A stretch of 64,000 nt of DNA from Acidimicrobiia bacterium (lineage in GTDB: Bacteria > Actinomycetota > Acidimicrobiia > Spongiisociales > ZC4RG35): NCBI GenBank assembly GCA_963665765.1, contig OY762464.1, forward strand, positions 2,601,958 through 2,665,957. The letters run 5' to 3'. Of the stretch, positions 1 through 61,803 are shown one piece after another. The position numbers and the translations under genes are program-made. Within the stretch, counting starts at the first letter, position 1, and each line of letters begins with the position of its first letter. The notes beneath the pieces were generated by a model. That model did no database searches. It saw only the letters and a program-made list of their open reading frames with translations, and had not been told where the DNA came from.

Positions 1-2254
1 GGCGGTGGCGTCTCGACTGGCCGAATTGTCGTCCGCCGGTGAGCAGCTTCACTCCGAGGAGAGGAGGAGGGAAGCGCAACTGGCCGAACAGCAGAGGGCG
101 TTGGCCCGGTGGGGCAGGGAGATGGACCGGGTCAAGGCCGAGGTGGTGGAACAAAGGCGGGCTCTGCGGGCCGCCGAGGCCCGGGCTGCTTCGGCCCGGG
201 CGACGATGGCGGAGGCGCAGGGAAAGCGGGAAGCCGCCCGGCGCACCTTGAATCCGGGTGATTCCGACCGCCGGAAGCGATTGGAGTCGCTCACCGGCTG
301 GGCGGGATGGGTCTCCGAGATTCTCCAAGCGCCCCCGGAGTTGGCCGCCGCGGTGGAGGCCGGGCTGGAGGGATGGGCTGAGGCGGCGGCCTTTGAGGGT
401 CCGGTGGCCCTGGGCAACGCGTTGGAAAGGCTGGGAAAGATCCCCGAGGAACAGGGACCGGTGTCGATGGTGAGCGCCCGTTTTCCCGGGGTGGCCGACC
501 TTCCGGCTCGGACCGTGGCCGCCTCGGGCAGCCGGGTGACGCCCTTGGTGGATCTGGTGACCGATGGTGAACAGTTCGCTTTGGCCGCTCGCCTGCTGGG
601 TGATGTGGTCCTGGTGGAGAACTGGAGAAGCGGTTGGGAGGTGGTGGGAAGTCATCCGCGCCTGCGGGCGGTGACCCGACAGGGAGATCTGATCACATTG
701 CGCGGGATTTCCCGGGGTGGGCGGAACCGTCTGCCCGATCTGGTGGCGGCCAACGCCGAGGCCGAAGCGGCGACCGTGGCTTTCCGGTCCCTCCGCATCA
801 AGGTGAAGAGCCTGCGGGCCGCGGCGGAGTCACTGGACGAGAGTCGCGAGAAGCAGTTCAGCAGTCTGCAACTCGGTCGTCAGAAAATGCTGGAATCCCA
901 ACGGGAGGTCGAACGGATCGCGGCGCGTCGCCGGGAGATCGACCACGAAAAGGGCCGTTTGAGAAGGCGTCTGGAATCTTTGATGCAGGCCGAAGCCGCC
1001 CGGGCGCGGCGTTTGGCCGAGTTGGAAGACCATATCACCCGACTGGAAGGCCGGTCGGCGACGCCCGATGAGTCGGACAGGCTTGCCCGACGGTTGGAAG
1101 AGACCTCCCGCGCCCGGGCGGCGGCCGAGGAGGAGTACCGGTCCGGGAGCGCGGCGCTCACCGGACTGGCGGAGCGCCGCCGGCTGGAAAGAGCCAGATA
1201 CGAGCAGTTGGCGGTGGAGGTGGCGGAGATGTCGCGGCTTTCCGACGGCTTTTCGGCAGGATGGTCGGAGGAGGTGTCGGAGATTGCCGCCGCGGCGCTA
1301 CGGCTGATGGCGACCCATCGCGCCTCGTTGGTCGAGCTGGACCGGGCTTCCCGACGGCGCGCTCGGGCCCTGGGGGAGGAGGCCACCGAAGCGAGGAGGG
1401 AAATCAGCCGCTCCGATCAGCAGGAGCGGGAGGCCACCGGTCATTTGGAGACGCTGATCTCCGAGATTTCCCGTCTGGAAGCCCATCGTCAAACCACCGT
1501 GGAAGCACTGTGGGAGATGGGCGCCGATCCTGCCCAGGCGGTCGGCGCGCCCCGGCCCGAGATCAGTGATCCAACGGCGGCCCTGGCCTCGGGGGTGGCC
1601 GAATTGGAGCGGATGAGGCCCATCAATCCCTATGCCGCCGCCGACCTCGCCGCCCTGGAGGAAGAGTTGTCGAAACTGTGCGACCAGCGGGATGACATCG
1701 TGGGGACCGATCGACGCCTGGGAAAAGTGATCTCCGAATTGGAGAAGGAAGCCACCGAGCGGTATCTGGCCACCTTCCGGGAGACCGCCAGAGCATTCGA
1801 GCAGGCCTTCGGGCAGGTGTTTCCCGGGGGGCGGGGGAGGCTTCGCATCGTTGATCCGGCGGATCCGCTCGGCTCGGGAGTGGAGATCCATGCTCGACCG
1901 CAGGGCAAGCGGGTGTCTCGGCTGAGCCTGTTGTCGGGAGGGGAACGGGCACTGGGCGCTCTGGCTTTTCTGTTCGCTCTGATGAGAACGCGGCCCTCTC
2001 CCTTCTATCTGCTGGATGAGATGGACGCCAGCCTGGACGCGGCCAACCTGTATCGGGTGTTGCAGGTGGTCCGCCAACTTCGCTCCCATGCCCAAATCCT
2101 GATCATCACCCATCAACCGCAGACCGCCGAGTTCGCCGAGGTGCTGTATGGGGTCACCATGCCGCCGGGAGGAACCACCCAGGTGGTCTCCCGCCGCATG
2201 GAACGAACCGAGGCTCCGGTCGAGGCATTCCCGGCCCAGGGCCGCTCCGCGTAG
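1..2254 (+). CDS. smc: Chromosome segregation protein SMC, C-terminal portion (5' end lies outside the window)
   Basis: Long coiled-coil region followed by the ABC signature/Walker B block LSGGERALGALAFLFAL...FYLLDEMDASLD and a D-loop/H-loop (ILIITHQ). The ORF is open at the window start. Confidence 0.85.
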   Translation, partial: AVASRLAELSSAGEQLHSEERRREAQLAEQQRALARWGREMDRVKAEVVEQRRALRAAEARAASARATMAEAQGKREAARRTLNPGDSDRRKRLESLTGWAGWVSEILQAPPELAAAVEAGLEGWAEAAAFEGPVALGNALERLGKIPEEQGPVSMVSARFPGVADLPARTVAASGSRVTPLVDLVTDGEQFALAARLLGDVVLVENWRSGWEVVGSHPRLRAVTRQGDLITLRGISRGGRNRLPDLVAANAEAEAATVAFRSLRIKVKSLRAAAESLDESREKQFSSLQLGRQKMLESQREVERIAARRREIDHEKGRLRRRLESLMQAEAARARRLAELEDHITRLEGRSATPDESDRLARRLEETSRARAAAEEEYRSGSAALTGLAERRRLERARYEQLAVEVAEMSRLSDGFSAGWSEEVSEIAAAALRLMATHRASLVELDRASRRRARALGEEATEARREISRSDQQEREATGHLETLISEISRLEAHRQTTVEALWEMGADPAQAVGAPRPEISDPTAALASGVAELERMRPINPYAAADLAALEEELSKLCDQRDDIVGTDRRLGKVISELEKEATERYLATFRETARAFEQAFGQVFPGGRGRLRIVDPADPLGSGVEIHARPQGKRVSRLSLLSGGERALGALAFLFALMRTRPSPFYLLDEMDASLDAANLYRVLQVVRQLRSHAQILIITHQPQTAEFAEVLYGVTMPPGGTTQVVSRRMERTEAPVEAFPAQGRSA

Positions 2255-2305
2255 GAGCAAGGTGGGTTGCTATCGGGCCGGTGAGCCTGCCCGTGGGTCT
2301 TCGGG

Positions 2306-4105
2306 GTGGTCGCAAGGGTGGGTGTCACAGGCGCTCGGTATTCTGAAAGTGTCCCGCAGAAGGCGTTGGCTACGGGTGGAGCGATGGAAATAGCAATGGA
2401 ATCGGTGGGCAGGGTGCTGGGCACCGATGAGTCGACCCCTCTGGCCTTTTGGGTAGGGGTGGCCGAGGATCAGCATCTGCAACTTGACGACATCGTGGCG
2501 GTTGATCGGATCCTGCCGACCGGAGAGATCATTTCGATCTTTGGAGTGGTCGGGCAGATGCGCGCCCGCTATGAGGGCGCCCGGTTCGACTCGGATGTGT
2601 TCTTGATCGCCTCGGGGATTCTGCCGGCCGACGTGTCGGAGGCAGCGCAGGTTCAGGTAACGCGGATCGTGCCGGAAACCTTCGTTCCGCCCTTGCCGGG
2701 GTCCGAGGTGCGTCGGGCGGTCGGCGACGAACGGGACGCCGCCCTTGACATGACCGAGGTGGAACGAAAGTTGCCGGCCGGCCTGACCCGGGACGGACGG
2801 CAGGCGGTCATGCTCGACCTCGATTTCCTGGACGGCACCAAGGGCGCCCATGTCAATATCTCAGGAATCTCGGGGGTCGCCACCAAAACCAGTTACGCAA
2901 CGTTCCTGCTCTACTCCCTGTTCAATTCGGGTGTGCTGGGCGCCGCCGCGGCCAATACCAAGGCCCTCATCTTCAACGTCAAGGGCGAAGACCTGCTCTT
3001 CTTGGACCATCCCAACAACCGCCTGGACGAAGAACAGCGGTCACACTACGCAACGTTGGGACTGCAGGCCGCGCCCTTCCGGTCACTTCGGATCCTTGCT
3101 CCACCACGCATCGGCGACCCCAATGGCACACCCCATACCGGCGCTCGGGTTACCGGTGTTCGCCCCATGTACTGGACGGTTGCCCAGTTCTGCCGGCAAG
3201 GGCTATTGCCCTTTTTGTTCGCCGACGCCGAAGACGAACGACAGCAGTACACGATCGTGGTGCATTCGGTCGCCGCCCAGTTGGAACGCCACGCCAAGAA
3301 TTTCAACCCTTCTGACGGTGCGGTCCGTATCGACGGCCGGACGGCCCGCACGTTTTCCCAGCTGGTCGAGATCATCTGCGACAAGCTCCTCCCCGAAGAC
3401 CCCGACACTCCCCCCGACCCCCTGTGGACCGGACGATCGGTCCACACCGGGACGATCAGGGCGTTCGTGCGCCGGCTCTCATCGTCCGAGCGCCACGTTG
3501 CCCATCTGATCAGGGCCGATATCGACAACGCCGAAACCCATGCTCTGGACCTCGACTCCCAGCAGGTCACGGTGGTCGACCTGCACCTGCTCCACGACCG
3601 AGCGAAGCGGTTTGTGGTTGGGGTGGTGCTCCGACAAGCGTTTGAGGCCAAGGAACAATCCGGTACGGCCGAGCCCCTGCAATTCGTGGTGCTCGACGAA
3701 TTGAACAAATACGCCCCGCGGGCGTCGTCGAGCCCCATCAAGGAAATTCTGCTGGATGTGGCCGAGCGGGGTCGCAGCCTGGGAGTCATTCTGATCGGCG
3801 CCCAGCAGACCGCCAGCGAAGTGGAACGGCGGATCGTTTCCAATTCGGCGGTGCGGGTGGTGGGTCGGTTGGATACCGCCGAGGCCGGACGCGAGCAGTA
3901 TGGTTTCTTGCCCGCCGCCCAACGCCAACGGGCCACGATCCTCAAACCCGGCGCCATGTTCGTCTCCCAGCCGCGCCTTCCGGTGCCGGTGCTGGTCGAG
4001 TTTCCTTTTCCGGCATGGGCCACCCGGTTCGCCGAAGCCGATCTGGACGGAGGGATCGGCGGGCGGGGCGGTCAGCCTGACGACCCATGGGATGGTCTGA
4101 TTTGA
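2306..4105 (+). CDS. herA: HerA/FtsK-class (DUF87-like) ATPase; true start may be the internal Met near 2384
   Basis: Walker B hhhhDE (FVVLDELNKYAP) and an arginine-finger/sensor block (RSLGVILIGAQQTASEV) typical of HerA/VirB4/FtsK ATPases. P-loop region GISGVATKTS is deviant. Sits first in an operon with sbcD-sbcC and a NurA-like gene. Confidence 0.65.
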   Translation: MVARVGVTGARYSESVPQKALATGGAMEIAMESVGRVLGTDESTPLAFWVGVAEDQHLQLDDIVAVDRILPTGEIISIFGVVGQMRARYEGARFDSDVFLIASGILPADVSEAAQVQVTRIVPETFVPPLPGSEVRRAVGDERDAALDMTEVERKLPAGLTRDGRQAVMLDLDFLDGTKGAHVNISGISGVATKTSYATFLLYSLFNSGVLGAAAANTKALIFNVKGEDLLFLDHPNNRLDEEQRSHYATLGLQAAPFRSLRILAPPRIGDPNGTPHTGARVTGVRPMYWTVAQFCRQGLLPFLFADAEDERQQYTIVVHSVAAQLERHAKNFNPSDGAVRIDGRTARTFSQLVEIICDKLLPEDPDTPPDPLWTGRSVHTGTIRAFVRRLSSSERHVAHLIRADIDNAETHALDLDSQQVTVVDLHLLHDRAKRFVVGVVLRQAFEAKEQSGTAEPLQFVVLDELNKYAPRASSSPIKEILLDVAERGRSLGVILIGAQQTASEVERRIVSNSAVRVVGRLDTAEAGREQYGFLPAAQRQRATILKPGAMFVSQPRLPVPVLVEFPFPAWATRFAEADLDGGIGGRGGQPDDPWDGLI

Positions 4106-4116
4106 GGCCGGCTTAA

Positions 4117-5280
4117 GTGAGGCTGCTTCACACTTCCGACTGGCATGTCGGAAAAGCCATCCGAGGGATTTCCCGGGCGGATGAGCATCGGGCGGTACTG
4201 GCGGAGGTCGCCCTGATCGCCGAGCAGGAAGAGGTTGATCTGGTGATCGTCGCCGGTGATGTGTTCGACTCGTCGGCGCCCACCGCCGAAGCAGAAGAAA
4301 TTGTTTATCAGGCTCTCCTCAACCTCTCCGAGACCGGAGCCGAGGTGGCGATGATCGCCGGCAATCATGACAATCCCCGCCGGTTGCGGGCGATTACGCC
4401 CCTTTTGCGGCTCGGGCGGGTGCATGTGGTTGCCGAGCCAACCCGACCCGACGACGGGGGCGTCCTCCCATTGAGAGCTCGTAGCGACCGAAGCGAGATT
4501 CGTCTGGCGATGCTCCCCTTCGTATCCAAGCGCGGCATCGTGCGCGCCAAAGACCTCATTGGCAACCAAGCCTTCGAGCACGCCCAGCAGTACAGCGAGC
4601 GTATGCGCCTGCTGATTGCGGCGCTGTGCGATTCGTTCCGGGGTGACACCGTCAACCTGCTCACCGCCCACACTTTCGTGCTGGGTGGCGCGATGGGAGG
4701 CGGCGAACGACCGGCCCACCTGGTTGAAGAATATGCCGTTATGGCACAGTCCTTCCCGGTGGCGACCATGAGCTACGGGGCGCTCGGTCATCTCCACCGG
4801 CCCCAACGGGTCGGACCGGCGCTCTATTACTGCGGTTCTCCGCTGCAACTTGACTTCGGCGAAACCGATCAGACCAAACAAGTCAATATCGTCACCTTGG
4901 AACCGGGCCTACCAGCCGATGTCCAAGCCGCGCTGCTCACCTCGGGGCGGCCGCTTCGGACACTGAGCGGGACGCTCGACGAACTTGCCTCGATGAGCAC
5001 CCAAGACGATGCCTGGCTGAGGGTGGTCGTGAAAGGTCCGGGCCGGGCAGACCTGGCTCGGACTGTGCGCCAAGTACTCGGCCCCGGCGTGGTCGACGTA
5101 CGGGTGGAATCACCCCAAACGGCCGGCAGGCAACGGCGATTCGATCATCGCAGCCACTCGCCACAAGAGTTGTTCGGTGAGTATCTCACGCACCAGAATG
5201 TCAAAGACACCCGGGTCAGTGACCTGTTCGGTGAGCTGTTGGACGTCCACGGCGACGGGCCGGCGGGACGGCAGTCATGA
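4117..5280 (+). CDS. sbcD: DNA double-strand-break repair nuclease SbcD/Mre11 (calcineurin-like phosphoesterase)
   Basis: N-terminal LHTSDWHVGK and VIVAGDVFD, IAGNHD metallophosphatase motifs. Immediately upstream of, and overlapping (ATGA), the Rad50/SbcC gene. Confidence 0.85.
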   Translation: MRLLHTSDWHVGKAIRGISRADEHRAVLAEVALIAEQEEVDLVIVAGDVFDSSAPTAEAEEIVYQALLNLSETGAEVAMIAGNHDNPRRLRAITPLLRLGRVHVVAEPTRPDDGGVLPLRARSDRSEIRLAMLPFVSKRGIVRAKDLIGNQAFEHAQQYSERMRLLIAALCDSFRGDTVNLLTAHTFVLGGAMGGGERPAHLVEEYAVMAQSFPVATMSYGALGHLHRPQRVGPALYYCGSPLQLDFGETDQTKQVNIVTLEPGLPADVQAALLTSGRPLRTLSGTLDELASMSTQDDAWLRVVVKGPGRADLARTVRQVLGPGVVDVRVESPQTAGRQRRFDHRSHSPQELFGEYLTHQNVKDTRVSDLFGELLDVHGDGPAGRQS

Positions 5281-8144
5281 GACCCTTGCAACTATCTATC
5301 AAGGGCTTTGGGGCCTTCCGAGAGCCGACCCACATCGACTTCACCGACATCGACCTGGTAGCGCTGGTGGGCCCCACCGGTTCGGGCAAATCAACCATCA
5401 TCGACGCCATCACCTTCGCGCTGTACGGCACGGTCGCCCGCTACGAAGACAACCGCTTGGTGGCGCCGGCGATCAACCAAACCAGCACCGAGGCTCGGGT
5501 GGCCCTCGACTTCGAGCTCAACCAACAGGTCTACACGGCCGTCCGGGTGGTGCGCCGCACCACCGGCGGTGGGGCAACCACCCGGGAGGCGCGTCTGGAA
5601 CAAGCAGAGCGGGTTCTGGCGGGTGACGCCGCGTCGATGTCGAAAGAGGTTGAGGAGCGGTTGGGACTGAAGGTTGGGCAGTTCAATCGGACGGTGGTGC
5701 TTCCCCAGGGCAAGTTCGCGGCCTTTCTCCACGACAAGCCCGGCGACCGACAAACCACTCTGGTTCGGTTGCTCGGTCTGCAACTGTATCGGCGGATAGG
5801 CCAAGAGGCGCGAAGCAGAAAAGCGAAAGCCGGCAACCATGCCGACGCCCTCCGGTCCGAACATGCCAAAGCAGCCAGGGAGTTGACCGACGAACAGAGG
5901 GTGGGACTGGAGGGCCGCATAGCCGCCCTGGCCGCCGCATCCGAACGGTGGCGCCGCGACCGCGCCCAAATCATGGCTCTCGAAGCCGAAACCGGCGACC
6001 TCAAAGATCGTATCGGGTCGCTGGACGAGAGGATCGATCGCATGAGGGAGATGGCGGCGCCCGCCGACCTGGACGACTTGGCCGATCAGATCACCACCGC
6101 CGAACAGTCTCAGTCAGAGGCAGAGGCACTGCGTTCTGAGTGGAGCGTGATTCGAAGACTGGCGGACCATGCCCTCAAGTCCGGTCCCGACCCCGTCGCC
6201 GTGCAACTGGAACTGAGCATCCACACCGAACTGGCGGAACGAGCCCGGGCTCATCAGATGATCGCCCGGAAACTCTCCGAGTCGATAGCCAAGTACCGGT
6301 CCGCCTCCGGCGAAGCCGATCGAGTCAGAGAAACGCAAGAGGAACTGAAGCGGTGTGTGGAGGAAAACAGAAAGATCGAGGCAGACGCTCGCGCGGCCCG
6401 CGACGCCCAAGTCACAGTTGCGCAAATCGAGGGTTGGGAAAGGTTGCATAACCGTCACCAGGCGGCGGTTGAGAAAGCGTCCGTCATCGATCAAGCCGTC
6501 CGATCCGTCGAGGAGGCGCTGCCGTCGCGGCGCGCGGCCTGCCAAGATACTGCATCAACCGCCGCGGCGACTTCGGCGCGGGTGGCAGATCTTCAGCTCC
6601 GAGCCGGGGTCCTCGGACACCTCGACCTGCTGGAAGTGGGCCAGGACTGCCCGCTGTGTTTGCAGGAAGTATCCCGGTTGCCGGCGCACGACTTCCAAGA
6701 CGCTGATCTCCGCCGGGCCAAGGAACAAAAGGACCTCGCCCAGGCCGCGGCCGCCGCTGCCCAAGAGGCATACAACCAGGCGGTCGTCGAGTTGAAGGGC
6801 CGGCAGGCGGCCGCTTCCTCAGCTCGTTTGGCCGCCCAAAACTGCCAATCCGATGTTGCTTCCCTTCCACCGGCCGAGCAACTCGACGCCCTTTTGGCAG
6901 AAGCGCAGCAGTTGGCCGAGGCCGCGGTCTTGGCAGAAAACGCCACCCAAAAAGCTGAGATCGCCGCTCGGCGGCACCTGTCTTCCCCGGCCTATGCCGA
7001 GGCGCTGGGCACCGAGAAACAAGCCTTTGAACAACAGACCCTCCTCATTGTCGAAGAGCGCACTCTTGAAAAGCAACTGGCGTCCTTGCGGGTCAAAGTA
7101 GATGCTATCCCCGGAGAGGAAGAACTGCGCGCCCGATTGGCGGAGGCCAACCGCTTACGCGCTGAACTGGACGAAGCTGATTCCCAACTACAGAACGCCG
7201 AAGCCCGGCACAAACATGCCGCCGACCAGCTTGGCAAAATGAACAAACGGCGCCAACAGGCGACCGCGCTGCTCAATGCTGCCCGCGATCGAGTGGCGCC
7301 ATTCGGGCCGCCTCCCATCGACCCATCCGATCTGGTGGCTGCCTGGGCAACCCTGACCGATTGGGCCGATGAGCAAACCCGGGCCGCCCGGGTGGAACGG
7401 CGATCCGTCATGGAGAGAAGGTCCGAGCAGGAGAAGCGACGAGCCGGGTTGGCCGAGAGCCTCAGGTCCCTGTGCCATGAGGTGGTGGGCCCAACCGATC
7501 CCCTCGCCGACCCCGAGGAACTCGGCCGTCTGCTGACCGATAATCTGGCTGCCACCAAGACCGAACTCACCCACTTCGACCGACGCATGGTTGAGCTCAA
7601 GGACCTGGAAAAGCGCATCGAAGCGCGGGACGAACAGGCCCGGGTTGCCCACCATCTCGGCCGGTTGCTGCGCACCGACGGCTTCGAGAGATGGCTGATG
7701 GAAACCGCACTCCATCGGTTGGTGGAACAGGCGACCAAGCAACTCTTCGAACTTTCCAACGGTCAGTACTCCCTGGAACTCCATGGAGGCGACTTTTTTG
7801 TCCGAGACCACACCAACGCCGACGAGTTGCGCCGCGCCCGAACGCTGTCAGGTGGCGAGACCTTCCTCGCCTCCCTTTCTCTGGCTCTGGCGCTGGCCGA
7901 CGCCACCGCCGAGATGTCCACCGGAGTGGTTCCGGCCATGGAGTCGATCTTCTTGGACGAAGGATTCGGAACACTCGACCGGCACACCCTCGAAACGGTT
8001 GCCACCGCGGTTGAGGAACTGGGCGCCGGCGGCCGGCTGGTCGGAATAGTCACTCACATCCGGGAACTAGCCGACCGCATGCCGGTGCGACTGGAACTAA
8101 CCAAGACCGGCGGGTCGGCAACGGTCGAACGGATCGATATTTGA
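5277..8144 (+). CDS. sbcC: SbcC/Rad50-family ATPase
   Basis: N-terminal Walker A VGPTGSGKSTIIDAITFALYG, long coiled coil with a central CPLC zinc hook, C-terminal signature LSGGETFLASLSLALAL and Walker B IFLDEGFGTLD. Confidence 0.85.
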   Translation: MRPLQLSIKGFGAFREPTHIDFTDIDLVALVGPTGSGKSTIIDAITFALYGTVARYEDNRLVAPAINQTSTEARVALDFELNQQVYTAVRVVRRTTGGGATTREARLEQAERVLAGDAASMSKEVEERLGLKVGQFNRTVVLPQGKFAAFLHDKPGDRQTTLVRLLGLQLYRRIGQEARSRKAKAGNHADALRSEHAKAARELTDEQRVGLEGRIAALAAASERWRRDRAQIMALEAETGDLKDRIGSLDERIDRMREMAAPADLDDLADQITTAEQSQSEAEALRSEWSVIRRLADHALKSGPDPVAVQLELSIHTELAERARAHQMIARKLSESIAKYRSASGEADRVRETQEELKRCVEENRKIEADARAARDAQVTVAQIEGWERLHNRHQAAVEKASVIDQAVRSVEEALPSRRAACQDTASTAAATSARVADLQLRAGVLGHLDLLEVGQDCPLCLQEVSRLPAHDFQDADLRRAKEQKDLAQAAAAAAQEAYNQAVVELKGRQAAASSARLAAQNCQSDVASLPPAEQLDALLAEAQQLAEAAVLAENATQKAEIAARRHLSSPAYAEALGTEKQAFEQQTLLIVEERTLEKQLASLRVKVDAIPGEEELRARLAEANRLRAELDEADSQLQNAEARHKHAADQLGKMNKRRQQATALLNAARDRVAPFGPPPIDPSDLVAAWATLTDWADEQTRAARVERRSVMERRSEQEKRRAGLAESLRSLCHEVVGPTDPLADPEELGRLLTDNLAATKTELTHFDRRMVELKDLEKRIEARDEQARVAHHLGRLLRTDGFERWLMETALHRLVEQATKQLFELSNGQYSLELHGGDFFVRDHTNADELRRARTLSGGETFLASLSLALALADATAEMSTGVVPAMESIFLDEGFGTLDRHTLETVATAVEELGAGGRLVGIVTHIRELADRMPVRLELTKTGGSATVERIDI

Positions 8145-52670: not shown

Positions 52671-52743
52671 GGGCGTTTAGCTCAGATGGAAGAGCGCTTC
52701 CCTTACAAGGAAGAGGTCGGCGGTTCGATTCCGTCAACGCCCA
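52671..52743 (+). tRNA. tRNA-Val (anticodon TAC)
   Basis: Manual fold: acceptor GGGCGTT/AACGCCC (7 bp), D-arm GCTC-AGATGGA-GAGC, anticodon arm CTTCC-CTTACAA-GGAAG, variable AGGTC, T-arm GGCGG-TTCGATT-CCGTC, discriminator A. No encoded CCA. Confidence 0.85.
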
Positions 52744-53100
52744 CACCGAGGAGTCTGCGATTTATGACGCTGATAGGCTGTTTTTCCCATTTGGGTTGGT
52801 TTTGGGGGTTTTTGACCGTTTCGGAGGGGGCTGTGGCCTAGCCGGGGGGCTGTTTGGTGGTTGTCGGGACGAGGTTCCCCCGGTTTGGCGGACTGTTTTG
52901 GTTGGTTGTTCATGCCACCAGTTTTTGGTGTTGGTGGCGGTAGTTTACGGGGCTTTGGTAGTTGTTGGGTGAGTGTCCGGCAACGGGATATATAGCAGTG
53001 AACTCAAGGTTCATGGTGAAGGAACTGCCGAGGAGTTCCCGAATCGCCAGCGACAGCCCAGCCTGTCCATCTGCTCACCAAGAAACCTCATGGCGGCAAT

Positions 53101-54621
53101 GTGTGCTATTCTGGCGGTATGTCAATGACCATTGAGGTCGCCAACGTCGGCCCGATCCGGCACGCTCAACTGTCCCTTGGCAACCTAAATGTGCTGATCG
53201 GCACAAATGACACTGGTAAGACCTTTTTTGCAACGGTAGTCCATCGCCTATTGGCAGCGAGCACCGACGCATACTTCCCCGACACGGAGCCAGCGGACTA
53301 TATCCCCAAGAACATACACGATTATGTCAGGGAATTCAAAACCACTTCACGGCGAAGTGGAGGCCAAGACAGTGAGAGGGAACTTGTCATTGACGATGAG
53401 ATGCGGACATGGGCGAATGGAATAAACGAATCCACACTCCAGCGGTTCGGTAAAGCCGCACGCCGTGGGATTTCTTACGCGTATGGTGCGCCTACAGAAC
53501 GTCTCCTGCGGCAACCGCTTCTATATTCGAGGCACGAGTCGTACATGTTCATAAAGAACCTCGAACCGCGATGGAGTGTCAGAATAAAGATGGATGGTGA
53601 TAACGAAGCCGACGATTATGTTTGCGTATCCCGCCCGAACCCCGACACTTGGTTGCGTGATGTCTTCAATCCTGCCCTTATCCAGCGGCTGTCTGCACAT
53701 TACGAATTCTTCCAGTCAAAGAATAAGAACAATGAAGTTGATCCCATTCAAGACATCGAAGAGCTATGCCAGTACATACTGTACATGACAGGAGATGTAG
53801 CCTTGTTTCGTCAGTGGCCAAAGGAATGTCTTCATCTTCCCTCTGAGCGCGGCGGCATTATGCAGAGTTACCGCGGAATCACAAGCGCAGCATTGCGGAA
53901 GAGCGCCTTCGCCGGAATTGAGCCTGTCGAAATCGAACCCCTTGACGGTACCTCTAGAGATTTTTTGTCCTTCGTCGTTTCGTCTGGAAGTGAAAAGCCT
54001 CGGTTGACTTCAGATAAGAGCTATGCAAACTGGGCAAAGAACCTTGAAAAGAATCTAAGAGCAAAGATTGAACTTCTCAAAAACCCAAGTGGTCTAGACC
54101 GCATTGTAGCGACCACGCCGGAGGGCCAATTCGAACTCAATCAAACTTCGTCAATGATCTCCGAAGTCTCGCCATTCGTACTTGCGTTAAAGCATCGGTT
54201 GGGAACTCGAGACTATCTCACGATCGACGAGCCAGAGGCACACCTGCATCCGGAAATGCAAATCGAGATCGCTAAATGCTTGGTGGATCTGGCTTCAAAG
54301 GGTTTGACGATCACATTCACAACTCACTCCAATTATTTCGTTGAACAAATAAGCAATGGGATACGCAGCAGTGAACTTGAGACTCATGGCGAGGAGGAGT
54401 TGCCGCCGATTCCTCGAATTGATCCTGAAAATGTTCGCGCGCTCCTATTTGTCCGCGATGACAATGGCTGCGCCGCTATTGACGCTACGGGTGACAGTAT
54501 TGACCCGATAAAGGAAGAAACCTTCACTAAGGCTGCTCGCGCTCAATATGAGCAATCGGTTCCGCTCATTAATCGACTACTCGAGCGAGTCAACGCGACG
54601 GGCGAAGTGGCCGATCAATAG
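53101..54621 (+). CDS. AAA_21/ABC-type (SMC-like) ATPase, first gene of a two-gene defense-like module
   Basis: Walker A LIGTNDTGKTFF near the N-terminus. Distant Walker B/D-loop LTIDEPEAHLHPEMQ and H-loop ITFTTHSNYF, with a ~340-aa insert between them, as in abortive-infection ATPases (Septu PtuA, PARIS AriA, AbiLi). GC ~50%. Confidence 0.7.
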   Translation: MCYSGGMSMTIEVANVGPIRHAQLSLGNLNVLIGTNDTGKTFFATVVHRLLAASTDAYFPDTEPADYIPKNIHDYVREFKTTSRRSGGQDSERELVIDDEMRTWANGINESTLQRFGKAARRGISYAYGAPTERLLRQPLLYSRHESYMFIKNLEPRWSVRIKMDGDNEADDYVCVSRPNPDTWLRDVFNPALIQRLSAHYEFFQSKNKNNEVDPIQDIEELCQYILYMTGDVALFRQWPKECLHLPSERGGIMQSYRGITSAALRKSAFAGIEPVEIEPLDGTSRDFLSFVVSSGSEKPRLTSDKSYANWAKNLEKNLRAKIELLKNPSGLDRIVATTPEGQFELNQTSSMISEVSPFVLALKHRLGTRDYLTIDEPEAHLHPEMQIEIAKCLVDLASKGLTITFTTHSNYFVEQISNGIRSSELETHGEEELPPIPRIDPENVRALLFVRDDNGCAAIDATGDSIDPIKEETFTKAARAQYEQSVPLINRLLERVNATGEVADQ

Positions 54622-54627
54622 GTCGCG

Positions 54628-55212
54628 ATGGACACCCTGGGTTCACCATATATGAAGCCCTGTGGTCACGATTGCCAAATTTGCCGGTTTCATAAGGCAT
54701 TGGTTGATGCAGGAGCCCAATTCAGTTATTCTGACACACTACGTGAGGCCGAGTGTTCATTTACAGTTAGCACCCCCGCATACCCTTGCTGTGTAACCAA
54801 ACTCAAGGTGGATACAGATTACGCGACGTATAGACAGAGGGTGGATCCGCCGGGCCTCACAAAAATGTGCGACTTTGTGGTGGCCTTTTCAACATGCAAA
54901 GGTGCAAGATATAGTGCCATCGAGTTGAAATCGCGAGAGCCATATCTGGAGGATGCAGCGGAACAACTGAAAGAAGGACTTCATCTGATTGTAAATCACC
55001 TGGTTGACGGTCCCCTTAGGCCTGTGCTGCGGGCATACCTTGTCGTGGGTGTGATGACCACGAGGTTGATAGATATTACTCGTACTGAAGGCAGATTGAA
55101 TGTAGATGGCAGGCTCGTCCAAATTGAACTCGTTGAGTGCCTTGAATCGCTGGAAGGCTCGCCAAGTCGTGGGGAGGGTGGTGGTCCGAGGGTTCAAAGA
55201 AGCGGGTTGTGA
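54628..55212 (+). CDS. Small partner protein with N-terminal Cys cluster and a possible PD-(D/E)xK-like nuclease motif
   Basis: 6 bp after the ATPase gene. C12-x3-C16-x2-C19 cluster. CDFVVAF...YSAIELKSR resembles the D...(E)xK core of restriction-endonuclease-fold nucleases. This is inference only. Confidence 0.45.
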   Translation: MDTLGSPYMKPCGHDCQICRFHKALVDAGAQFSYSDTLREAECSFTVSTPAYPCCVTKLKVDTDYATYRQRVDPPGLTKMCDFVVAFSTCKGARYSAIELKSREPYLEDAAEQLKEGLHLIVNHLVDGPLRPVLRAYLVVGVMTTRLIDITRTEGRLNVDGRLVQIELVECLESLEGSPSRGEGGGPRVQRSGL

Positions 55213-55316
55213 CCGGGGGGTATTGAGGACTGGAGATTCCATTCCGACCCATGGATGAGGCGTAGGCAACGTTTCGTGCCAGTCCGGACGCTGCTCTGCG
55301 AGACCGTCCCGAACCG

Positions 55317-55598
55317 GTGTTGTTGGACGAGTGGCAAATAGTGCCCGAGGTGCTGGCCGCGGTGAAACGGGCGGTGGATTCCGACCGTCGTCCGGGACGA
55401 TTCCTCATAACGGGTTCCAACCGAAGGGACACATCTGATCGGTTCTGGGCGGGGACCGGGCGGGTAGTGATGGTCTACATGCAACCTTTGACAGTGGCGG
55501 AAATGCTGTGCCGCCCGAGTGGTGGGTTTGTGGATCGGGTGGTTTCGGGTGATGCGCTTACCGCCGCGGCCGGTCGAGTGTTGGATCGCGGCACGTAA
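55317..55598 (+). pseudogene. Fragment of an AAA_14/DUF4143-type ATPase gene (Walker B region only)
   Basis: LLDEWQIVPEVLAAVKRAVDSDRRPGRFLITGSN parallels the Walker-B/FILTGS block of the 40554-42566 protein. Only ~90 aa remain. Confidence 0.4.
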
Positions 55599-55718
55599 CT
55601 GTTCATATGCAACATATGTTATTCCCGCTCTCACGCGGGACACACTTCCCATATCACGCGCGTCCACCACCAGAAAGCACCGGCAGAGATTCGGACCAGC
55701 GGGGTATATTCAGAGGTT

Positions 55719-56006
55719 GTGGCAGTTGCGCCCGAGTTCCTGGGAATGAAGTTCGGGGTGGCTTACGAAAAGGACACGGAGTCCCACATCCGCATTATCT
55801 ACTGGGACTGGGCCGCCCAGAACTGTCAGCCCAGAACTGTCAGCCAATATGGGATAAACAGCCGGGCTGTTATAGAGGGATGGCTGCCGCAGCTTGGCAT
55901 GTGGGCAATCAACGACTGGGTAGAAGCACACCAGCCCGAATTGCAACAAGCCTGGGAAGACAGCCGGATGGGAAGAGTCCCCGCCTTGATCGAACCACTG
56001 GAATAG
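55719..56006 (+). pseudogene. DUF4160-like gene fragment containing a 13-bp tandem duplication
   Basis: C-terminal AINDWVEAHQPELQQAWEDSR resembles the DUF4160 tail (…EW...H.EEL..NW). CCCAGAACTGTCAG occurs twice in tandem (55811-55843). Confidence 0.3.
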
Positions 56007-56198
56007 AACCAGGTGAACCCGCCCCCGGGACACCAGGAACTGGCCGGTGGGCACTTTCAGTGATCGCCGACAGTTTGTCTTCCCCACTCACCGGCCGGTC
56101 CAGGCCAAAGGTTTGAGGTTGCGCGGACCGATAACCCTGCCATCAACCCTGCTGCTGCCCTTAGGGACGCCGTGGAAATGGAGGCTCAAGTCGGGCGG

Positions 56199-56797
56199 TC
56201 AGCGTCTCCATAAAGCGCCGGAAGTGCGGTAGCCAGCGCTCGAGTCTGCTCGGGTCCACGAGTCCGAGCAGTACAAAGAGTTCCGTCCTTTTTGGTACCC
56301 GCCTTTGCGGAAGGATGCGGTGGCATGTTTCAACGCTTGGATCACCTCCTCTTTGCGACGCTCCTCAAGTCCCTGAACAGGTAGCAGTCGATCCGGATTC
56401 AGGTCGGGAAAGTAATCTCGCAGGGCGCTGTGATCTGCAATCAGCCACGTTTCCATGCATGTGGCCATTAGTTGAGCCTGGTCATCTGAAGCCTGCCTTG
56501 GTCGTGTCCATTTGTCGTTCGCGACCAAATGCTGCCATGCGCCGGAGGAACTCGGCGGCTGATGTTGAGTTTGAACGATGGCCTCGCTATCGACCAAAGG
56601 ATGGGGTAACCATCCCCCTCCCGGAGCGCTGTCCTAAAGTTCCGGTAAGCGCGGGTCTCGGGGGCCGCAGGCGACCACCTTTGGCAGTCGCCCGACAAAG
56701 CCTGCTTGGACGAGCAGATCCCGAAAACCTCTGCGCAATTGGCTCTTGAGTGCGGCTCGGTGCCCCCGCCTCCTTCCGCATACAATACGACATTCAC
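56199..56797 (-). pseudogene. DUF4276 (RloB/AbiLii-like) gene disrupted by frameshifts
   Basis: N-terminal piece MNVVLYAEGGGGTE (TOPRIM-like VEGxTE) in one frame (56468-56797). C-terminal piece with the METWLIADHSALRDYF (E.WLLAD..AL) hallmark in another frame (56199-56597). A third frame carries the middle. Confidence 0.45.
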
Positions 56798-58047
56798 CAG
56801 CGAGTGCCGCCTATTTGTCCAGTGGTCCAGAGCTCACCCAGTCGGTATTCTTCTAGCCATCTGCTTAGACCGTCCTGGCTAAAACGCTCCATCCGTGTGC
56901 ATCCATTGTGATTCTCGAACACCACGATCGCCTCTGGTGTTTCAGATAGGGCGTCGACCAGAATGTCAGAGTGGGTGGTTACAACGACCTGCATACGTTC
57001 GCTGGCCGCAATCAGGTGCTTCGCCAGGCCCGCCACAATATCGGGGTGCAGTCCGAGTTCGGGCTCCTCGATGCAGAGCACCGGCAAGGCATTGGGGTTG
57101 TACAGCATGGTCAGGAGACACAGATAGCGAATGGCCCCATCCGACAGCCTGGTCGCGGGAATCGAACGCCGTCCGCTTTCGGTAAAGAAGATCTGAACCG
57201 ACCCACCGCCGATTACAACTTCATAGCTCGTGAAGCCTTCGTAGAGTTCCCGTAGACCATTGATGACCTGCTGTTTAGCCTCGGGAAAAGCACCCATCTG
57301 ATTGAGAACCAACCCGAGGTTGGAAAAGTCCTCTTCGAGGCGATCCGAACGCCCATCAGCAGGTTGCGATCGGCGCAGTGGAGCACCTCGGCCGAACGCC
57401 CACCCGTCGTATATCTGGATCGAGTTGTAGACGCTGGCCAGCAACGCCAGGTGGGGATAGTCAAACGGTGACCGGAGCTGCTGAAGAATCGACTGATTTG
57501 TCACATCGGGATAGGAACGCCGCGTGAGAGGCCCTGCCGGAGCATGAACGGAGCCCAACCGTACCCATCTGAGACCTGGCCCCGGGCGCAACGGCGGACG
57601 ATCCTCAGGGGAACCCGACAAGACGTCATCCTCAGACCGAGCGCGAATCTTTGCCTCCCTCGAATCCAGACAAGACTCATACAGAAGCGTGTCGGGCTGC
57701 AATGTGACCAGCTCTTTGGTCGGCCACAGTTCGGAGTCAACTGTGCGAAAGGAAATTTGATGGCCAAGTTGCATGCCAGCCGGGGAAACAACCATGTCGA
57801 GCTGCGGTGCCCCGGTCACCTCGCTCTCCCATAACCAACTTCTTGGTCCCCCACCGCGACGGACAACATCCTGAAGCTCGGTCGGAATGCTGCGTATCAA
57901 CCTGAAGACATCAAAAAGGTTGGACTTCCCAGAAGCGTTCGGCCCGATGAGCACATTGAGCATCCCCAGATGCACGGGTGAGGTCTCGGGACCAAATGAA
58001 AGCAACCCTCTTGGCCTGATCGTCTGGATCAAAGGCTGATTGAGCAT
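56794..58047 (-). CDS. AAA_21 ABC-type ATPase (AbiLi-like abortive-infection ATPase)
   Basis: Walker A LIGPNASGKSNLFDV, Walker B/D-loop LCIEEPELGLHPD, H-loop VVVTTHSD. Stop overlaps the start of the DUF4276 remnant. Confidence 0.75.
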   Translation of the reverse strand: MLNQPLIQTIRPRGLLSFGPETSPVHLGMLNVLIGPNASGKSNLFDVFRLIRSIPTELQDVVRRGGGPRSWLWESEVTGAPQLDMVVSPAGMQLGHQISFRTVDSELWPTKELVTLQPDTLLYESCLDSREAKIRARSEDDVLSGSPEDRPPLRPGPGLRWVRLGSVHAPAGPLTRRSYPDVTNQSILQQLRSPFDYPHLALLASVYNSIQIYDGWAFGRGAPLRRSQPADGRSDRLEEDFSNLGLVLNQMGAFPEAKQQVINGLRELYEGFTSYEVVIGGGSVQIFFTESGRRSIPATRLSDGAIRYLCLLTMLYNPNALPVLCIEEPELGLHPDIVAGLAKHLIAASERMQVVVTTHSDILVDALSETPEAIVVFENHNGCTRMERFSQDGLSRWLEEYRLGELWTTGQIGGTRW

Positions 58048-58266: not shown

Positions 58267-58731
58267 TCAGTTTCTGCAAAGCTTTAGGCGCAAGAGACGC
58301 CTGTGTTTTTCGGTCAGTGCTTCCCTTTTGGAGGACGCGTAGATCTTGCCGCGGGGCATGTCGATCAACTCCTTTTTGCTGAAATCGACCCTCAAATCTA
58401 CGTCGTAGGAATAAAGTAGCCTGGCACCGCTTATTTGCGCCAAGGCTAGGATGTGCCAATCGTCAGATCGAATGCGCCTATCTTCGGCTAACTTCGTTGT
58501 GAGTTCGTTGACTCTGTGGTCATCCTCGTTCCGGACTAGACCCGCGTTGATGGCTGCCGAAAGCCACTTGCGCATGGCATTGCCGCAATCCCAATACTCC
58601 TTCCGAAGCTTTTGACCACCCAGCACAACTTTGATCTTCCCATCTTCAACCTGGCTCAGGAAGAACTTTCCGGCAGTACCCACGTCCTTGAATAAGTCCT
58701 TGACGACATTCGCATCAACGATTGCGCACAT
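58267..58731 (-). CDS. PIN-like domain protein (putative nuclease partner)
   Basis: N-terminus MCAIVDANVV (PIN strand-1 Asp) with downstream acidic residues (…QVEDGK…, …NEDDH…, …SYDVDLRVDF…). 3 bp after the upstream ATPase gene. Confidence 0.45.
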   Translation of the reverse strand: MCAIVDANVVKDLFKDVGTAGKFFLSQVEDGKIKVVLGGQKLRKEYWDCGNAMRKWLSAAINAGLVRNEDDHRVNELTTKLAEDRRIRSDDWHILALAQISGARLLYSYDVDLRVDFSKKELIDMPRGKIYASSKREALTEKHRRLLRLKLCRN

Positions 58732-58734
58732 GGC

Positions 58735-60150
58735 TCAGGCGGACATGGAACGCCGCAACTCCTTCATGAAGAACTTGCGGTACCCCGCAGGGGCACCGTC
58801 GATGTTCCCCAGACGGTCCACGCTGATGGAATGGACCTGTACGGCTTGTTCCTCTCGCTTGAAGTACAGAATCGACACGTCTCGTGGCCGCAGACCCACC
58901 GAATTGTCTCGGACAGCCATCCTTACTCGGTCGATGATAAAGTCGCTGTGAGTCTCCACCACAAGTTGCCGACTGGCATTCCGCCTACGCCTAGAACCTG
59001 CGATCTCGCTGAGAAGGCTTCCGAGAGCGGCCGACGCTTTCGGATGCAGATGGACCTCGGGTTGCTGCAGTAGCACCAGCCGCCGACCGTCATGGCGCAG
59101 GAGCTCGGTGATGAGCGGAAGCACCTGACTCACCCCGTAGCCCATATCGACCAGATTGCGCATAGGACCCTTACGCTGTTTACCGGATTTTCGTAGGCGA
59201 ATCTGGAACGGAGCACTCTCGACCTTGCCGAGCCGACGTATCTCAATCTCGGTGAAAAGGCCAGCCTGTCTACCGAACTCCTGAATCCGGGTCTTGAGCG
59301 AGTCCCACTCTTTTGGTTCCCGCAGGGCCAACTGGGCGAGGTACATCGGCACATAGTCGCCCTCGGGATCCGGGGTGGTCCGAGCCGGATCGTAAGTTCG
59401 CTTAGGCTGCGAACGTACCGGAGCACTGGCGAACACCCCTCCGACACCCATGCCACCCCCTACGACACGAGGCCTTGTGCGCGCATACTTGAGGTGTTTT
59501 TCGATCTCAGACAAATCTTCAAATGAGATGGGGGGTGAACCCTTGATCGGCTTGAACCATTCTTCTAATGCCAAGTTGGTCTGACGTTCGGTGTCGAGCG
59601 CCCGTCTGAGAACCCACATTGGGGAATCAACCATAGGCAATCTATTGCTGTCGCGTCCTGGGAGATGAGGGAGATAACCATCTCGGGCGTCCGCCCAAGC
59701 TCCACGGGGACCGCCGTAGATGATGTGGGGCCCATCATCTTCACTGAACCTTTGCTCAACCCAAAACTGACCTTGTGAAACCCGACGGCGTGTGGGAACC
59801 GGTGCCGACAGATAATCAGTGAAGTCAACGTGTGTCGCCATCGCAGAAGCCTTTGCGGCGCCTTTCCGGATAGCCAACTCCATGACCGCGCCGAACTGCT
59901 CGGGTGGCCCACCCCTCGCGCCACTGCGATGGATGATCTCACTAAAGCTGCCCAGATCATAGGGAGGCTCTTTGAAATCCGGTACACGATTGAGGTACGC
60001 AATATCGACCATGGCACGGAGCATTGCCAAAAGCGAGGTCTTGCCAGTGTTGTTATCTCCGACAAGTAAAGTCAATGGTGCCAAGCGGGCGGTCTGCGAA
60101 CCAGCAAAGCAACGGTAGTTGCGGACCGTAATGCTCTTGATTATCTCCAA
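58735..60150 (-). CDS. AAA_15/AAA_21 ABC-type ATPase (DUF3696-like C-terminus), paired with the PIN-like protein
   Basis: Walker A LLVGDNNTGKTSLL, Walker B LVLLQQPEVHLHPKA, H-loop LVVETHSDF, long insert between the A and B motifs. Confidence 0.75.
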   Translation of the reverse strand: MEIIKSITVRNYRCFAGSQTARLAPLTLLVGDNNTGKTSLLAMLRAMVDIAYLNRVPDFKEPPYDLGSFSEIIHRSGARGGPPEQFGAVMELAIRKGAAKASAMATHVDFTDYLSAPVPTRRRVSQGQFWVEQRFSEDDGPHIIYGGPRGAWADARDGYLPHLPGRDSNRLPMVDSPMWVLRRALDTERQTNLALEEWFKPIKGSPPISFEDLSEIEKHLKYARTRPRVVGGGMGVGGVFASAPVRSQPKRTYDPARTTPDPEGDYVPMYLAQLALREPKEWDSLKTRIQEFGRQAGLFTEIEIRRLGKVESAPFQIRLRKSGKQRKGPMRNLVDMGYGVSQVLPLITELLRHDGRRLVLLQQPEVHLHPKASAALGSLLSEIAGSRRRRNASRQLVVETHSDFIIDRVRMAVRDNSVGLRPRDVSILYFKREEQAVQVHSISVDRLGNIDGAPAGYRKFFMKELRRSMSA

Positions 60151-60696: not shown

Positions 60697-61105
60697 CTAC
60701 TCATTGTACCGGGGGCTGCCTTCGGGATCGGTCAGGATACATTGTCGCTCGCGAGCGAGGAACCGTTTCAGGCAGCGGATGATGTCCTTTTTGGAGAGGT
60801 CTTCGGTGGTGCGCCGAGCGACGTAGTCGATGGTGGCTGGTGGAATCGTATTCGGACTATGGCTACCCGGTATAGCGCCGCGTTGGCTTGTCGGTATCCG
60901 CCTCTGTAGAGGCAATGCCGGTTGGTCTGTCCTGATGAGGCTGGAATCGGACAGGTACCGCGCGGAGTTTGACGAATGCGGCCTCAGAACGGATCCGTTG
61001 GGGGTTGTCGCCGAACACGATGAGAAGCTCTGCTACGGAGTCGGCTCCGATGTCGTAACCGTCTCGTAGTGTTGGGGAGGCTTGGGCGGTGAGGTCATCG
61101 AGCAC
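60697..61105 (-). mobile_element. IS110-family transposase remnant (Transposase_20 region, frameshifted)
   Basis: LRDGYDIGADSVAELLIVFGDNPQRIRSEAAFVKLRAVPVRFQ matches the IS110 C-domain pattern (L.sIPGiG..tAa.Lla.iGD..rF.s...l.ayaGlaP). The adjacent frame carries …DIIRCLKRFLARE. Confidence 0.4.
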
Positions 61106-61136
61106 GGCATCATGGGAGCGGATCTCGGTGTCGAGG

Positions 61137-61290
61137 TGGAGCCTGGTTCGAGACCGCGGTCAATCAGGTCCTGGCGTCGCCAGTTGTAGATGGTCTGGTC
61201 TGACACTCCAAGGTCCTTCGACTGAGATGCAACTGACCTGCCGGTTGCCAGCAGATCCAGGGGCCTGCGACGGAACTCGGGTGGACATTT
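61137..61290 (-). mobile_element. IS3-family OrfA (HTH) remnant
   Basis: EFRRRPLDLLATGRSVASQSKDLGVSDQTIYNWRRQ matches the IS3/IS911 OrfA helix-turn-helix. Confidence 0.45.
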
Positions 61291-61803
61291 CGATACGGCA
61301 TGAAGACCCTCCTTTTCGGGGTCGGTCACACCGTCAATTCGAATAACCCGACTCCACCAAAGTGGGGGCACACCTAACCCTCCAAAAACCCGGGGGTGAT
61401 TCACGCGCATCCCCCTGACCAGGCAAAACACAAACCACCCGCCAAATTCGGGTCCGAGTTAGAAAAACTCCGGGCGAACTGGCCGTTCACCCAGCGAGTG
61501 AACCTACTCGGATGATTCAGGTTCCGTTAGGAAGCGATGGTAATAGTGGCATTGGGGGTGTTCATGTTCGCCTATGTGGTCGCAAGGATGGCACAGTGGC
61601 TTACCCGAGGTTGAACGGAGATTCGAAACCAGCGGTCGAGCCTCCGGATGGAGCTTTCATCGCGGTTAGCGCCAGCCTCTCCCATGCCTACCGCTCCCAG
61701 ATTGGTGGGGCGGTCCTGAAAAACAACTAGGCGCTGTGAGTCGGCCGTTCAGAGAGGCCGTCTCGTCATGGGGGTGTGGAAGAGTGGAAGATTGGTTTAA
61801 ATG

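Follow-up and report, generated by a model that had tools for sequence, protein, structure and literature searches.

Few anti-phage architectures are as common, or as poorly understood, as the pairing of an ATP-binding cassette (ABC) ATPase with a small nuclease. Two adjacent genes at positions 53,101–55,212 of a 64,000-nucleotide stretch of an Acidimicrobiia genome (contig OY762464.1; the whole stretch is referred to here as the window) encode such an ATPase and a small partner protein, and the question they raise is whether the pair is a system of a new kind or belongs with one already known. An initial annotation made from the sequence had favoured the former, calling the pair a candidate undescribed system with Septu, PARIS and AbiLi as its nearest comparators. 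Neither part of that proposal is supported: the combination of an ABC ATPase and a small PD-(D/E)xK nuclease is already represented by PD-T4-4, WonAB, PDC-M47 and the 'OLD-ABC ATPase + novel REase' operons (REase, restriction endonuclease), and it is to PD-T4-4 and PDC-M47 that both genes point. We consider it probable that the pair is a horizontally acquired operon and a divergent member of the anti-phage class of OLD-type ABC ATPases with small PD-(D/E)xK partners, to which PD-T4-4, PDC-M47 and WonAB belong. The kind of system is already known; what is new is the branch itself, with its divergent ATPase inserts and Cys-rich nuclease, which lies below the thresholds of Pfam, NCBIfam and PADLOC.

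The upstream gene lies in a long open reading frame (ORF; 53101..54621, forward strand, 506 aa) that opens at GTG 53101. Its start is probably ATG 53119 or ATG 53125 instead, since alignments with orthologues begin at residue 7 of the 506-aa frame, the database gene call for an identical protein (P0096) is 498 aa long, and a GGCGG sequence sits 7 nt 5' of ATG 53125; residues of the ATPase motifs are numbered here from the ATG at 53119. Judged by its sequence, the product belongs to the ABC ATPases of OLD/AAA_15/AAA_21 type and carries a long insert; in Pfam it matches AAA_15 (4e-17) and AAA_21 (2e-13) and nothing else, TOPRIM included. Walker A, a signature-like motif, Walker B with the D-loop, and the H-loop are all located (Table 1) and invariant among six orthologues of 33–60% identity, so that by these marks the ATPase is intact; identities of the window ATPase to its full-length orthologues are 32–59%. 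The segment SSMIS is assigned as the ABC signature motif by its position. Separating the Walker A lysine from the Walker B aspartate are 336 residues, close to the roughly 340 first estimated, and a C-terminal extension of about 95 residues is conserved in the six orthologues.

No NCBIfam model comes close to its cut-off with the ATPase (PtuA, 21.2 bits against a cut-off of 500). Among the 5,027 models of PADLOC, the best matches are PD-T4-4_A (PDLC04033, 4.8e-24) and PDC-M47A (6e-21), followed at lower rank by AriA, NsnB, HEC-02A (1.9e-15), Old, GajA and PtuA. All of these matches are restricted to the Walker A end and the region from signature to H-loop; those to AriA stem from generic AAA_15/AAA_21-like models, and that to PtuA (2.9e-9) extends across only about 44 residues. 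The nearest solved ATPases, OLD, PtuA and GajA, match around Walker B only.

The downstream protein on its own has no match in Pfam or NCBIfam, a single-sequence search of the PDB with it returns only noise (a neurotrophic factor, viral fusion proteins), and no source gives it a name. Of 5.8 billion sequences searched, 9 are close homologues; 60 representatives were recovered when 1.84 billion cluster representatives were searched exhaustively with a profile. An alignment of 46 sequences with identities down to 22% (referred to here as A2) yields an AlphaFold2 model of good quality (predicted local distance difference test, 88.8; predicted template modelling score, 0.84), replacing an earlier model built from the 9 close homologues, which was unusable (46.3 by the former measure). 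The modelled chain runs alpha(17–27), a hairpin, beta(55–60), beta(83–88), beta(93–101), alpha(107–123) and beta(132–140), and ends in a non-conserved, low-confidence tail (residues 172–194). This is the alpha-beta-beta-beta-alpha-beta core of the PD-(D/E)xK superfamily, with the aspartate at beta-2 and the (D/E)xK motif in beta-3. Independently, the sequence profile matches the catalytic domain of EndoMS/NucS (5gke, 2vld; E = 5.4e-4), its sole sequence-level matches in the PDB, none of the PDB matches being a close solved relative. Model and profile match together confirm the PD-(D/E)xK core that had been put forward as a possibility, and the protein is predicted to have a restriction-endonuclease fold with an intact active site of D62, D82, E99-x-K101 and, probably, Q113. 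In line with the first description, it is neither an HNH nor a TOPRIM/DUF4435 protein: scans of Pfam, PADLOC and NCBIfam find no HNH, PtuB, AriB, TOPRIM or DUF4435 match in it or in its 45 relatives. The motifs first quoted, Walker A, Walker B/D-loop, H-loop, C-x3-C-x2-C and D…ELK, are all present by translation, and the invariance or near-invariance of the ATPase motifs and of the catalytic residues across divergent homologues marks them as more than chance.

The two genes are separated by 6 bp (TAG-gtcgcg-ATG), both on the forward strand, as the initial annotation had described the module. They are adjacent, ATPase first, in each of 14 further loci, and no HNH or known PtuB/AriB-type fold was found. 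In the 10 of these loci found from the small-protein side (Table 1), the ATPase lies directly 5' of the small gene and, where complete, is a full-length orthologue of the window ATPase (E <= 1e-80); that of L010 is cut by the contig end and that of L011 split by a frameshift. In the four found from the ATPase side (L013–L016), the small gene is directly 3' of the ATPase: the downstream genes of L013 and L014 are family members (8e-45 and 2e-49), and those of the second-tier ATPase loci L015 and L016 are more distant (2e-7 and 1.6e-14). Normalised similarities of ATPases and small proteins correlate closely (r = 0.92 over 45 locus pairs). A promoter and terminator scan finds such sites to be no commoner than in shuffled sequence and none between the genes, which fits an operon and is otherwise uninformative. 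The guanine-plus-cytosine (GC) content of the module, compared with its flanks at ten loci, is 10–22 points lower in six, 5–9 lower in three and equal in L013, and the outer flanks of the small-protein-side loci are unrelated housekeeping genes that change from locus to locus. The pair is a single co-inherited, horizontally moving operon. Matches in genome collections are two, both metagenome-assembled genomes of Acidimicrobiia; flanks are high in GC at most loci, L009 also holds a WhiB gene, and second-tier relatives of the ATPase include metagenome-assembled genomes of Poribacteria. The branch is best read as rare and mostly confined to Acidimicrobiia.

This distribution bears on a housekeeping role, in which a NucS/EndoMS-like nuclease and its ABC ATPase would repair DNA in the manner of SbcCD- or RecF/RecN-type machinery. 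The host belongs to the Actinomycetota, a lineage in which NucS serves mismatch repair, and EndoMS and NucS alone answer the nuclease profile in the PDB. The likeness, however, spans the catalytic core only: NucS/EndoMS is a two-domain mismatch endonuclease that binds PCNA or the beta-clamp, and it has neither an ATPase partner nor the Cys cluster. No coiled coil of the kind found in repair ABC ATPases is present in the ATPase, which clusters with defence ATPases of OLD type. A repair role is rejected as highly improbable on account of the family's rarity and patchiness, its GC content below that of the flanks, and the change of neighbours from locus to locus.

Closest among the characterised pairs is PD-T4-4 of E. 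coli ECOR58, an 'ATPase, nuclease' pair that protects E. coli (Vassallo et al. 2022, PMC9519451) and is counted among the PD-(D/E)xK nuclease–NTPase systems (10.1101/2025.07.10.664194). Two true PD-T4-4 operons, from plasmids of E. albertii and K. pneumoniae, serve as references; they score 2e-258 and 4.5e-233 with the PADLOC A model, end to end, and 5e-107 and 3.6e-93 with the B model. PD-T4-4 resembles the window pair in having two co-directional, near-abutting genes in the order A then B, in the true plasmid loci too, and in size (ATPase, about 460–480 aa; nuclease, about 200–210 aa). Comparison of the window ATPase family with PD-T4-4_A by hhalign gives a probability of 99.4% (E = 1.8e-21, 133 columns), pairing columns 287–423 with 288–424 in a co-linear stretch that spans the signature, Walker B and H-loop motifs, whereas the two other ABC ATPases of the window reach only about 1e-7. 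Remote homology of the ATPase to PD-T4-4_A is thus strong, even though its PADLOC match is partial.

For the nuclease, A2 aligns with a 14-sequence alignment of true PD-T4-4_B over 91 columns (E = 1.1e-4, 56% probability). In exact register are C81-D82 with C90-D91, E99-x-K101-S with D108-x-K110-S, and Q113-L with Q122-L, so that the two proteins have in common the series LD, CD-hhh, (E/D)xKS and QL. Run against eight sequences, the A2 hidden Markov model scores about 4e-4 with each of the two true PD-T4-4_B proteins and 0.3 with an unrelated control. Adding second-tier sequences to the profile brings no gain against PD-T4-4_B (53.7% versus 56.5%). Across the 46 small proteins, the PADLOC model most often matched is PDC-M47B (11/46), with PD-T4-4_B matched by 4/46. 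PDC-M47 is an untested phage-defence candidate of PADLOC, with A and B genes, compared here through its models alone; matches to it are uniformly weak and incomplete, and at E <= 0.1 PDC-M47B is not matched by the window nuclease itself. Linking the families are intermediates: the small protein of L016 matches the A2 family at 1.6e-14 and PDC-M47B at 5e-7, and true PD-T4-4_B matches PDC-M47B at 6.5e-6. The link of the nuclease to this group is weak yet consistent, and homology of the window nuclease to PD-T4-4_B is plausible, not secure, on these alignments. The PD-T4-4 effector is itself labelled differently in the literature, as an HNH nuclease in one preprint (10.64898/2026.07.10.737580) and as PD-(D/E)xK elsewhere (PMC12137116; 10.1101/2025.07.10.664194); in the true PD-T4-4_B alignment, D57, C90-D91, D108-x-K110 and Q122 are invariant and no HNH-like motif is present, which favours the latter label.

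Several points weigh against placing the pair in this class. Alignment of the ATPase with PD-T4-4_A is limited to the surroundings of Walker A and to a stretch of about 135 columns that includes Walker B, leaving the inserts unaligned; its PADLOC match consists of two partial stretches, of which residues 342–422 cover profile positions 298–378 of 460. The nuclease resembles PD-T4-4_B weakly, with a PADLOC E-value of 0.048 (11.3 bits, residues 68–125 only) and hhalign probabilities of 54–56%. The cassette lies amid housekeeping rather than defence genes in several loci, and a frameshift in a neighbouring gene, HEC-01B, indicates that parts of the window's island are decaying. Defence function, complex formation and substrate are drawn from relatives by analogy. 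As both genes fall short of the family-level thresholds, the pair is not filed as PD-T4-4. Hosts differ too: PD-T4-4 occurs on plasmids and integrative and conjugative elements of Enterobacterales, the present branch in high-GC genomes of Acidimicrobiia type.

The same weak scores might mean that a PD-(D/E)xK nuclease of unrelated origin was taken up as partner by an OLD-type ABC ATPase, producing a convergent architecture and a separate type of system. Consistent with such an independent invention, the 60 representatives reached by the exhaustive search include no large PD-T4-4_B-like family, and the Cys-rich N-terminal part has no counterpart in PD-T4-4_B. Convergence is nonetheless unlikely: both genes separately indicate the same known pair, four catalytic-core motifs line up position by position, down to the unusual Cys that precedes the Asp and the Ser that follows the Lys, intermediate sequences connect the families, and the ATPase aligns to PD-T4-4_A at the same coordinates and far better than to the other OLD-type ATPases of the window. 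The two genes are best read, from their sequences, as a distant branch of one superfamily of ATPase–nuclease pairs, set apart by the ATPase inserts and the Cys-rich addition to the nuclease.

The sequence features that mark the wider class of ABC ATPases with small restriction endonucleases are found in the pair: ATPase motifs that are located and invariant, and a stand-alone small PD-(D/E)xK partner with conserved catalytic residues. WonAB of V. cholerae, an ABC ATPase that has all catalytic motifs and is paired with a small PD-(D/E)xK variant, is grouped by its authors with PD-T4-4 and also with operons of the type 'OLD-ABC ATPase + novel REase', for which they cite Krishnan et al. 2020 (PMC12137116). 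Its likeness to the window pair is drawn through its authors' comparison with PD-T4-4; WonB is smaller (16 kDa), and WonAB occurs mainly in Gram-negative bacteria. Septu (PtuA with the HNH protein PtuB) and PARIS (AriA with the TOPRIM protein AriB) likewise combine an OLD-family ATPase sensor with a separate small nuclease. Septu is set aside because the ATPase stays far below the PtuA cut-off and the effector is of PD-(D/E)xK type rather than HNH, and PARIS because there is no AriB, TOPRIM or DUF4435 match and the effector fold is again PD-(D/E)xK; membership in AbiLi was considered and rejected. HEC-02, a validated two-gene defence system, pairs an ABC ATPase with a NERD PD-(D/E)xK protein (10.1101/2024.01.29.577857), and the pairing of an ABC ATPase with a member of the PD-(D/E)xK superfamily is that of the window; the effector of HEC-02 is a NERD protein, and no member of the window nuclease family matches a NERD or HEC-02B model.

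Added to the nuclease core are conserved cysteines, seven in all (C12, C16, C19, C43, C55, C81 and C171). C81, which precedes the catalytic aspartate, is also present in PD-T4-4_B; the CxxxCxxC triad, C43, C55 and C171 are not. In three divergent members (P0050, P0056 and P0066) the N-terminal region is present, the triad is lost and C55 is replaced too, and this joint loss points to a single site formed by C12, C16, C19 and C55. Most likely, to judge from the conservation pattern, the triad together with C55, C43 and C171 binds a structural metal, either zinc or an iron–sulfur (Fe-S) cluster, that would hold the N-terminal helix and hairpin in place on the nuclease core. In Fe-S nucleases of the Cas4/AddB/Dna2 'iron-staple' type, the four-Cys cluster consists of a single Cys ahead of the core and a C-x2-C-x5-C motif behind it; the pattern here differs, and the protein is not placed among them. 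A bolder reading, which we regard as improbable, is that the cysteine set forms a redox- or Fe-S-based switch gating the nuclease, or, in a weaker version, that the family is independent of PD-T4-4. Were the switch real, a rare actinobacterial branch would have added a second input to ATPase control (the cell's oxidative or iron state, for instance, or a redox shift caused by phage), a regulatory principle so far undescribed for ABC-ATPase/nuclease defence pairs.

How might such a pair act? WonAB is the only member of the class with in vivo mechanistic data. Its defence is lost when either the ATPase motifs or the lysine of the nuclease is mutated, WonB is toxic in excess, its toxicity needs active WonA, and infection is aborted through translation arrest while genomic DNA is not degraded (PMC12137116). 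Purified EcPD-T4-4 forms higher-order complexes and cleaves 0/11 DNA substrates (10.1101/2025.07.10.664194). By analogy with WonAB and PD-T4-4, the window ATPase would be the sensor or regulator subunit and the nuclease the effector, an ATPase dimer holding the nuclease in a complex; a phage cue would cause ATP binding and hydrolysis to license or release the nuclease, which would then cut nucleic acid and stop phage production. The translation arrest with intact DNA in WonAB and the inactivity of EcPD-T4-4 on DNA make us lean, tentatively, towards an RNA target (tRNA or rRNA) and an abortive, translation-blocking outcome. DNA as the target is possible at a lower level of confidence.

A nuclease that cuts DNA could confer direct immunity in place of abortive RNA targeting, as an ATP-dependent, restriction-like enzyme that degrades phage DNA. 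The structural neighbours of the small protein are indeed DNA nucleases (Can1/Can2, type II and type IIS restriction enzymes, NucS), and many PD-(D/E)xK nuclease–NTPase systems degrade DNA in vitro (10.1101/2025.07.10.664194). We hold this to be rather unlikely: EcPD-T4-4, among the closest tested relatives, left all 11 DNA substrates uncut, WonB toxicity halts translation with genomic DNA intact, and no methyltransferase or other self-protection gene is linked to the pair at any locus examined.

The toxicity of WonB also bears on a reading in which the nuclease would be the toxin and the ATPase the antitoxin of an addiction module that stabilises an island and is not primarily concerned with phage. 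A small, tightly linked, low-GC and horizontally moving pair has the look of such a module, WonB is toxic when overproduced, and AAA_21 carries the Pfam description of a putative AbiEii toxin / type IV toxin–antitoxin domain. WonA, however, is needed for WonB toxicity instead of neutralising it, which rules out simple sequestration in WonAB, and the cassette often stands alone between housekeeping genes without an element to stabilise; an addiction module is very doubtful here.

As a probable defence pair of the PD-T4-4/WonAB class, the operon extends that class into the high-GC Actinomycetota (Acidimicrobiia), in which few defence systems have been characterised. The thresholds of Pfam, NCBIfam and PADLOC miss entire branches, and the alignments made here could serve as the basis of detection models. 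For mutagenesis, the invariant active site and the extra cysteine cluster are clear targets; if the cluster is an Fe-S or redox centre, nuclease activation could also be followed conveniently through it by spectroscopy. The advance is incremental rather than conceptual: a new branch and a new accessory feature.

Table 1. Features of the ATPase–nuclease pair and its surroundings (window positions, or locus names for related loci).
Feature	Position	Strand	Remarks
OLD-type ABC ATPase gene	53119..54621	+	500 aa from ATG 53119; 498 aa from 53125
Walker A / P-loop, GTNDTGKT	53200..53223	+	By translation; G-x-N-x-T-G-K-(T/S) kept in the five orthologues with an N-terminus
Signature-like SSMIS (S344-x-M346-x-S348)	54148..54162	+	S344, M346, S348 invariant in six orthologues
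Walker B/D-loop, IDEPEAHLHP	54223..54252	+	I369, D370, E371, P372, E373, H375, L376, H377, P378 invariant
H-loop, TTHS	54319..54330	+	H403, S404 invariant
Small PD-(D/E)xK-fold nuclease gene, predicted effector	54628..55212	+	194 aa
C12-x3-C16-x2-C19 triad, CGHDCQIC	54661..54684	+	In nearly all members with an N-terminus
C43	54754-54756	+	Conserved
C55, proposed metal site together with triad	54790-54792	+	Lost together with triad in three members
D62, acidic, just past core strand beta-1	54811..54813	+	46/46 sequences
C81-D82, 'D' of PD-(D/E)xK, start of core strand beta-2	54868..54873	+	D82 46/46, C81 45/46; strand 83-88 in model
E99-L-K101, '(D/E)xK', core strand beta-3	54922..54930	+	E99 46/46, K101 45/46; strand 93-101 in model
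Q113, helix after ExK strand	54964..54966	+	45/46 sequences; helix 107-123 in model
C171	55138-55140	+	Conserved
tRNA-Val(TAC)	52671..52744	+	ARAGORN; Rfam tRNA 71.4 bits
ATPase-like relic, ~65 nt, direct repeat D1	52980..53044	+	Counterpart 54353-54419; NGIYSSELKVHGEG...
AAA_14 fragment, 93-aa ORF	55317-55598	+	C-terminal half only, profile 67-129 of 129, E = 2e-9
HEC-01 pair	56199-58047	-	HEC-01A 56794..58047, E = 7.5e-128
Third ABC-ATPase pair	58267-60150	-	471-aa ATPase: AAA_15, AAA_21, DUF3696 tail
Transposase-type helix-turn-helix ORF	61033-61431	-	HTH_Tnp_1, 3e-6
Related loci found from the small-protein side	L001/L002, L003, L006, L007, L008, L009, L010, L011, L012		AAA_15/AAA_21 ATPase upstream

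In the window, the pair sits in an island bounded by tRNA-Val, beside other ATPase-based defence pairs. A WhiB gene lies immediately 5' of the tRNA, and the GC content falls just 3' of it, from about 0.64 upstream to 0.49–0.52 across the pair; with the tRNA ending where the drop occurs, the pair stands at the start of a low-GC island that adjoins the tRNA, in a high-GC actinobacterial genome. The tRNA-Val gene is the left boundary of this island and probably an integration hotspot. No second copy of its 3' end, as an attachment site would provide, is found in the 64-kb window, and the GC content is still about 0.57–0.59 at the window's end, so the island probably extends beyond position 64000. 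An Rfam scan of the island matches the tRNA alone, the spacer at 52745–52980 being without a match, which argues against a non-coding RNA partner of the retron type. That spacer, between the tRNA and the relic described below, is markedly G+T-rich on the forward strand (for example, ggttggttttgggggtttttgacc and ggttggttgttcatgcc...ggtgttggtggcggtag) and has no ORF support.

Located 75–140 bp 5' of the ATPase start is a short stretch resembling the 3' region of the ATPase gene itself (73% identity over 67 nt, blastn E = 4e-6). Its translation, NGIYSSELKVHGEGTAEEFP, is identical at 13/20 positions to ATPase residues 413–429, NGIRSSELETHGEEELP (tblastn E = 3e-4, in a small search space). It looks like what is left of an older, related ATPase gene that lay 5' of today's, which would suggest that one cassette replaced another at the tRNA-Val hotspot.

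Between the pair and its HEC-01 neighbour lies a truncated AAA_14 ORF that appears to be a pseudogene or a piece of a gene; apart from it, 55200–56200 contains only short, overlapping ORFs. In the HEC-01 pair beyond it, the DUF4276/HEC-01B gene is frameshifted, profile positions 1–64 lying in ORF 56468..56797 and 69–171 in ORF 56199..56597, and is probably either a pseudogene or the product of an assembly error. The ATPase of the third pair has its best PADLOC matches in NsnB (2e-41) and PDC-M55A (1.2e-31), and a 154-aa protein directly 3' of it matches nothing in Pfam or PADLOC; the two may be another uncharacterised ATPase and small-effector module.

Among the related loci, L015 (region 4978–7485) has its pair next to a DUF4276 and AAA_21 ATPase pair, the same type of neighbour as in the window. 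In L016 (region 1–7581), genes for DUF499, DUF7680 and DUF4365 border the pair at one end and a DUF1156 gene borders it at the other; DUF499 and DUF1156 are the domains of the ATPase and methylase of Hma systems, and the surroundings look like a system of that type. About 2.5 kb 3' of the L012 pair, a second AAA_21 ATPase gene is followed by one for a DUF3226 protein (4652–6196), and these may form a further ATPase and effector module.

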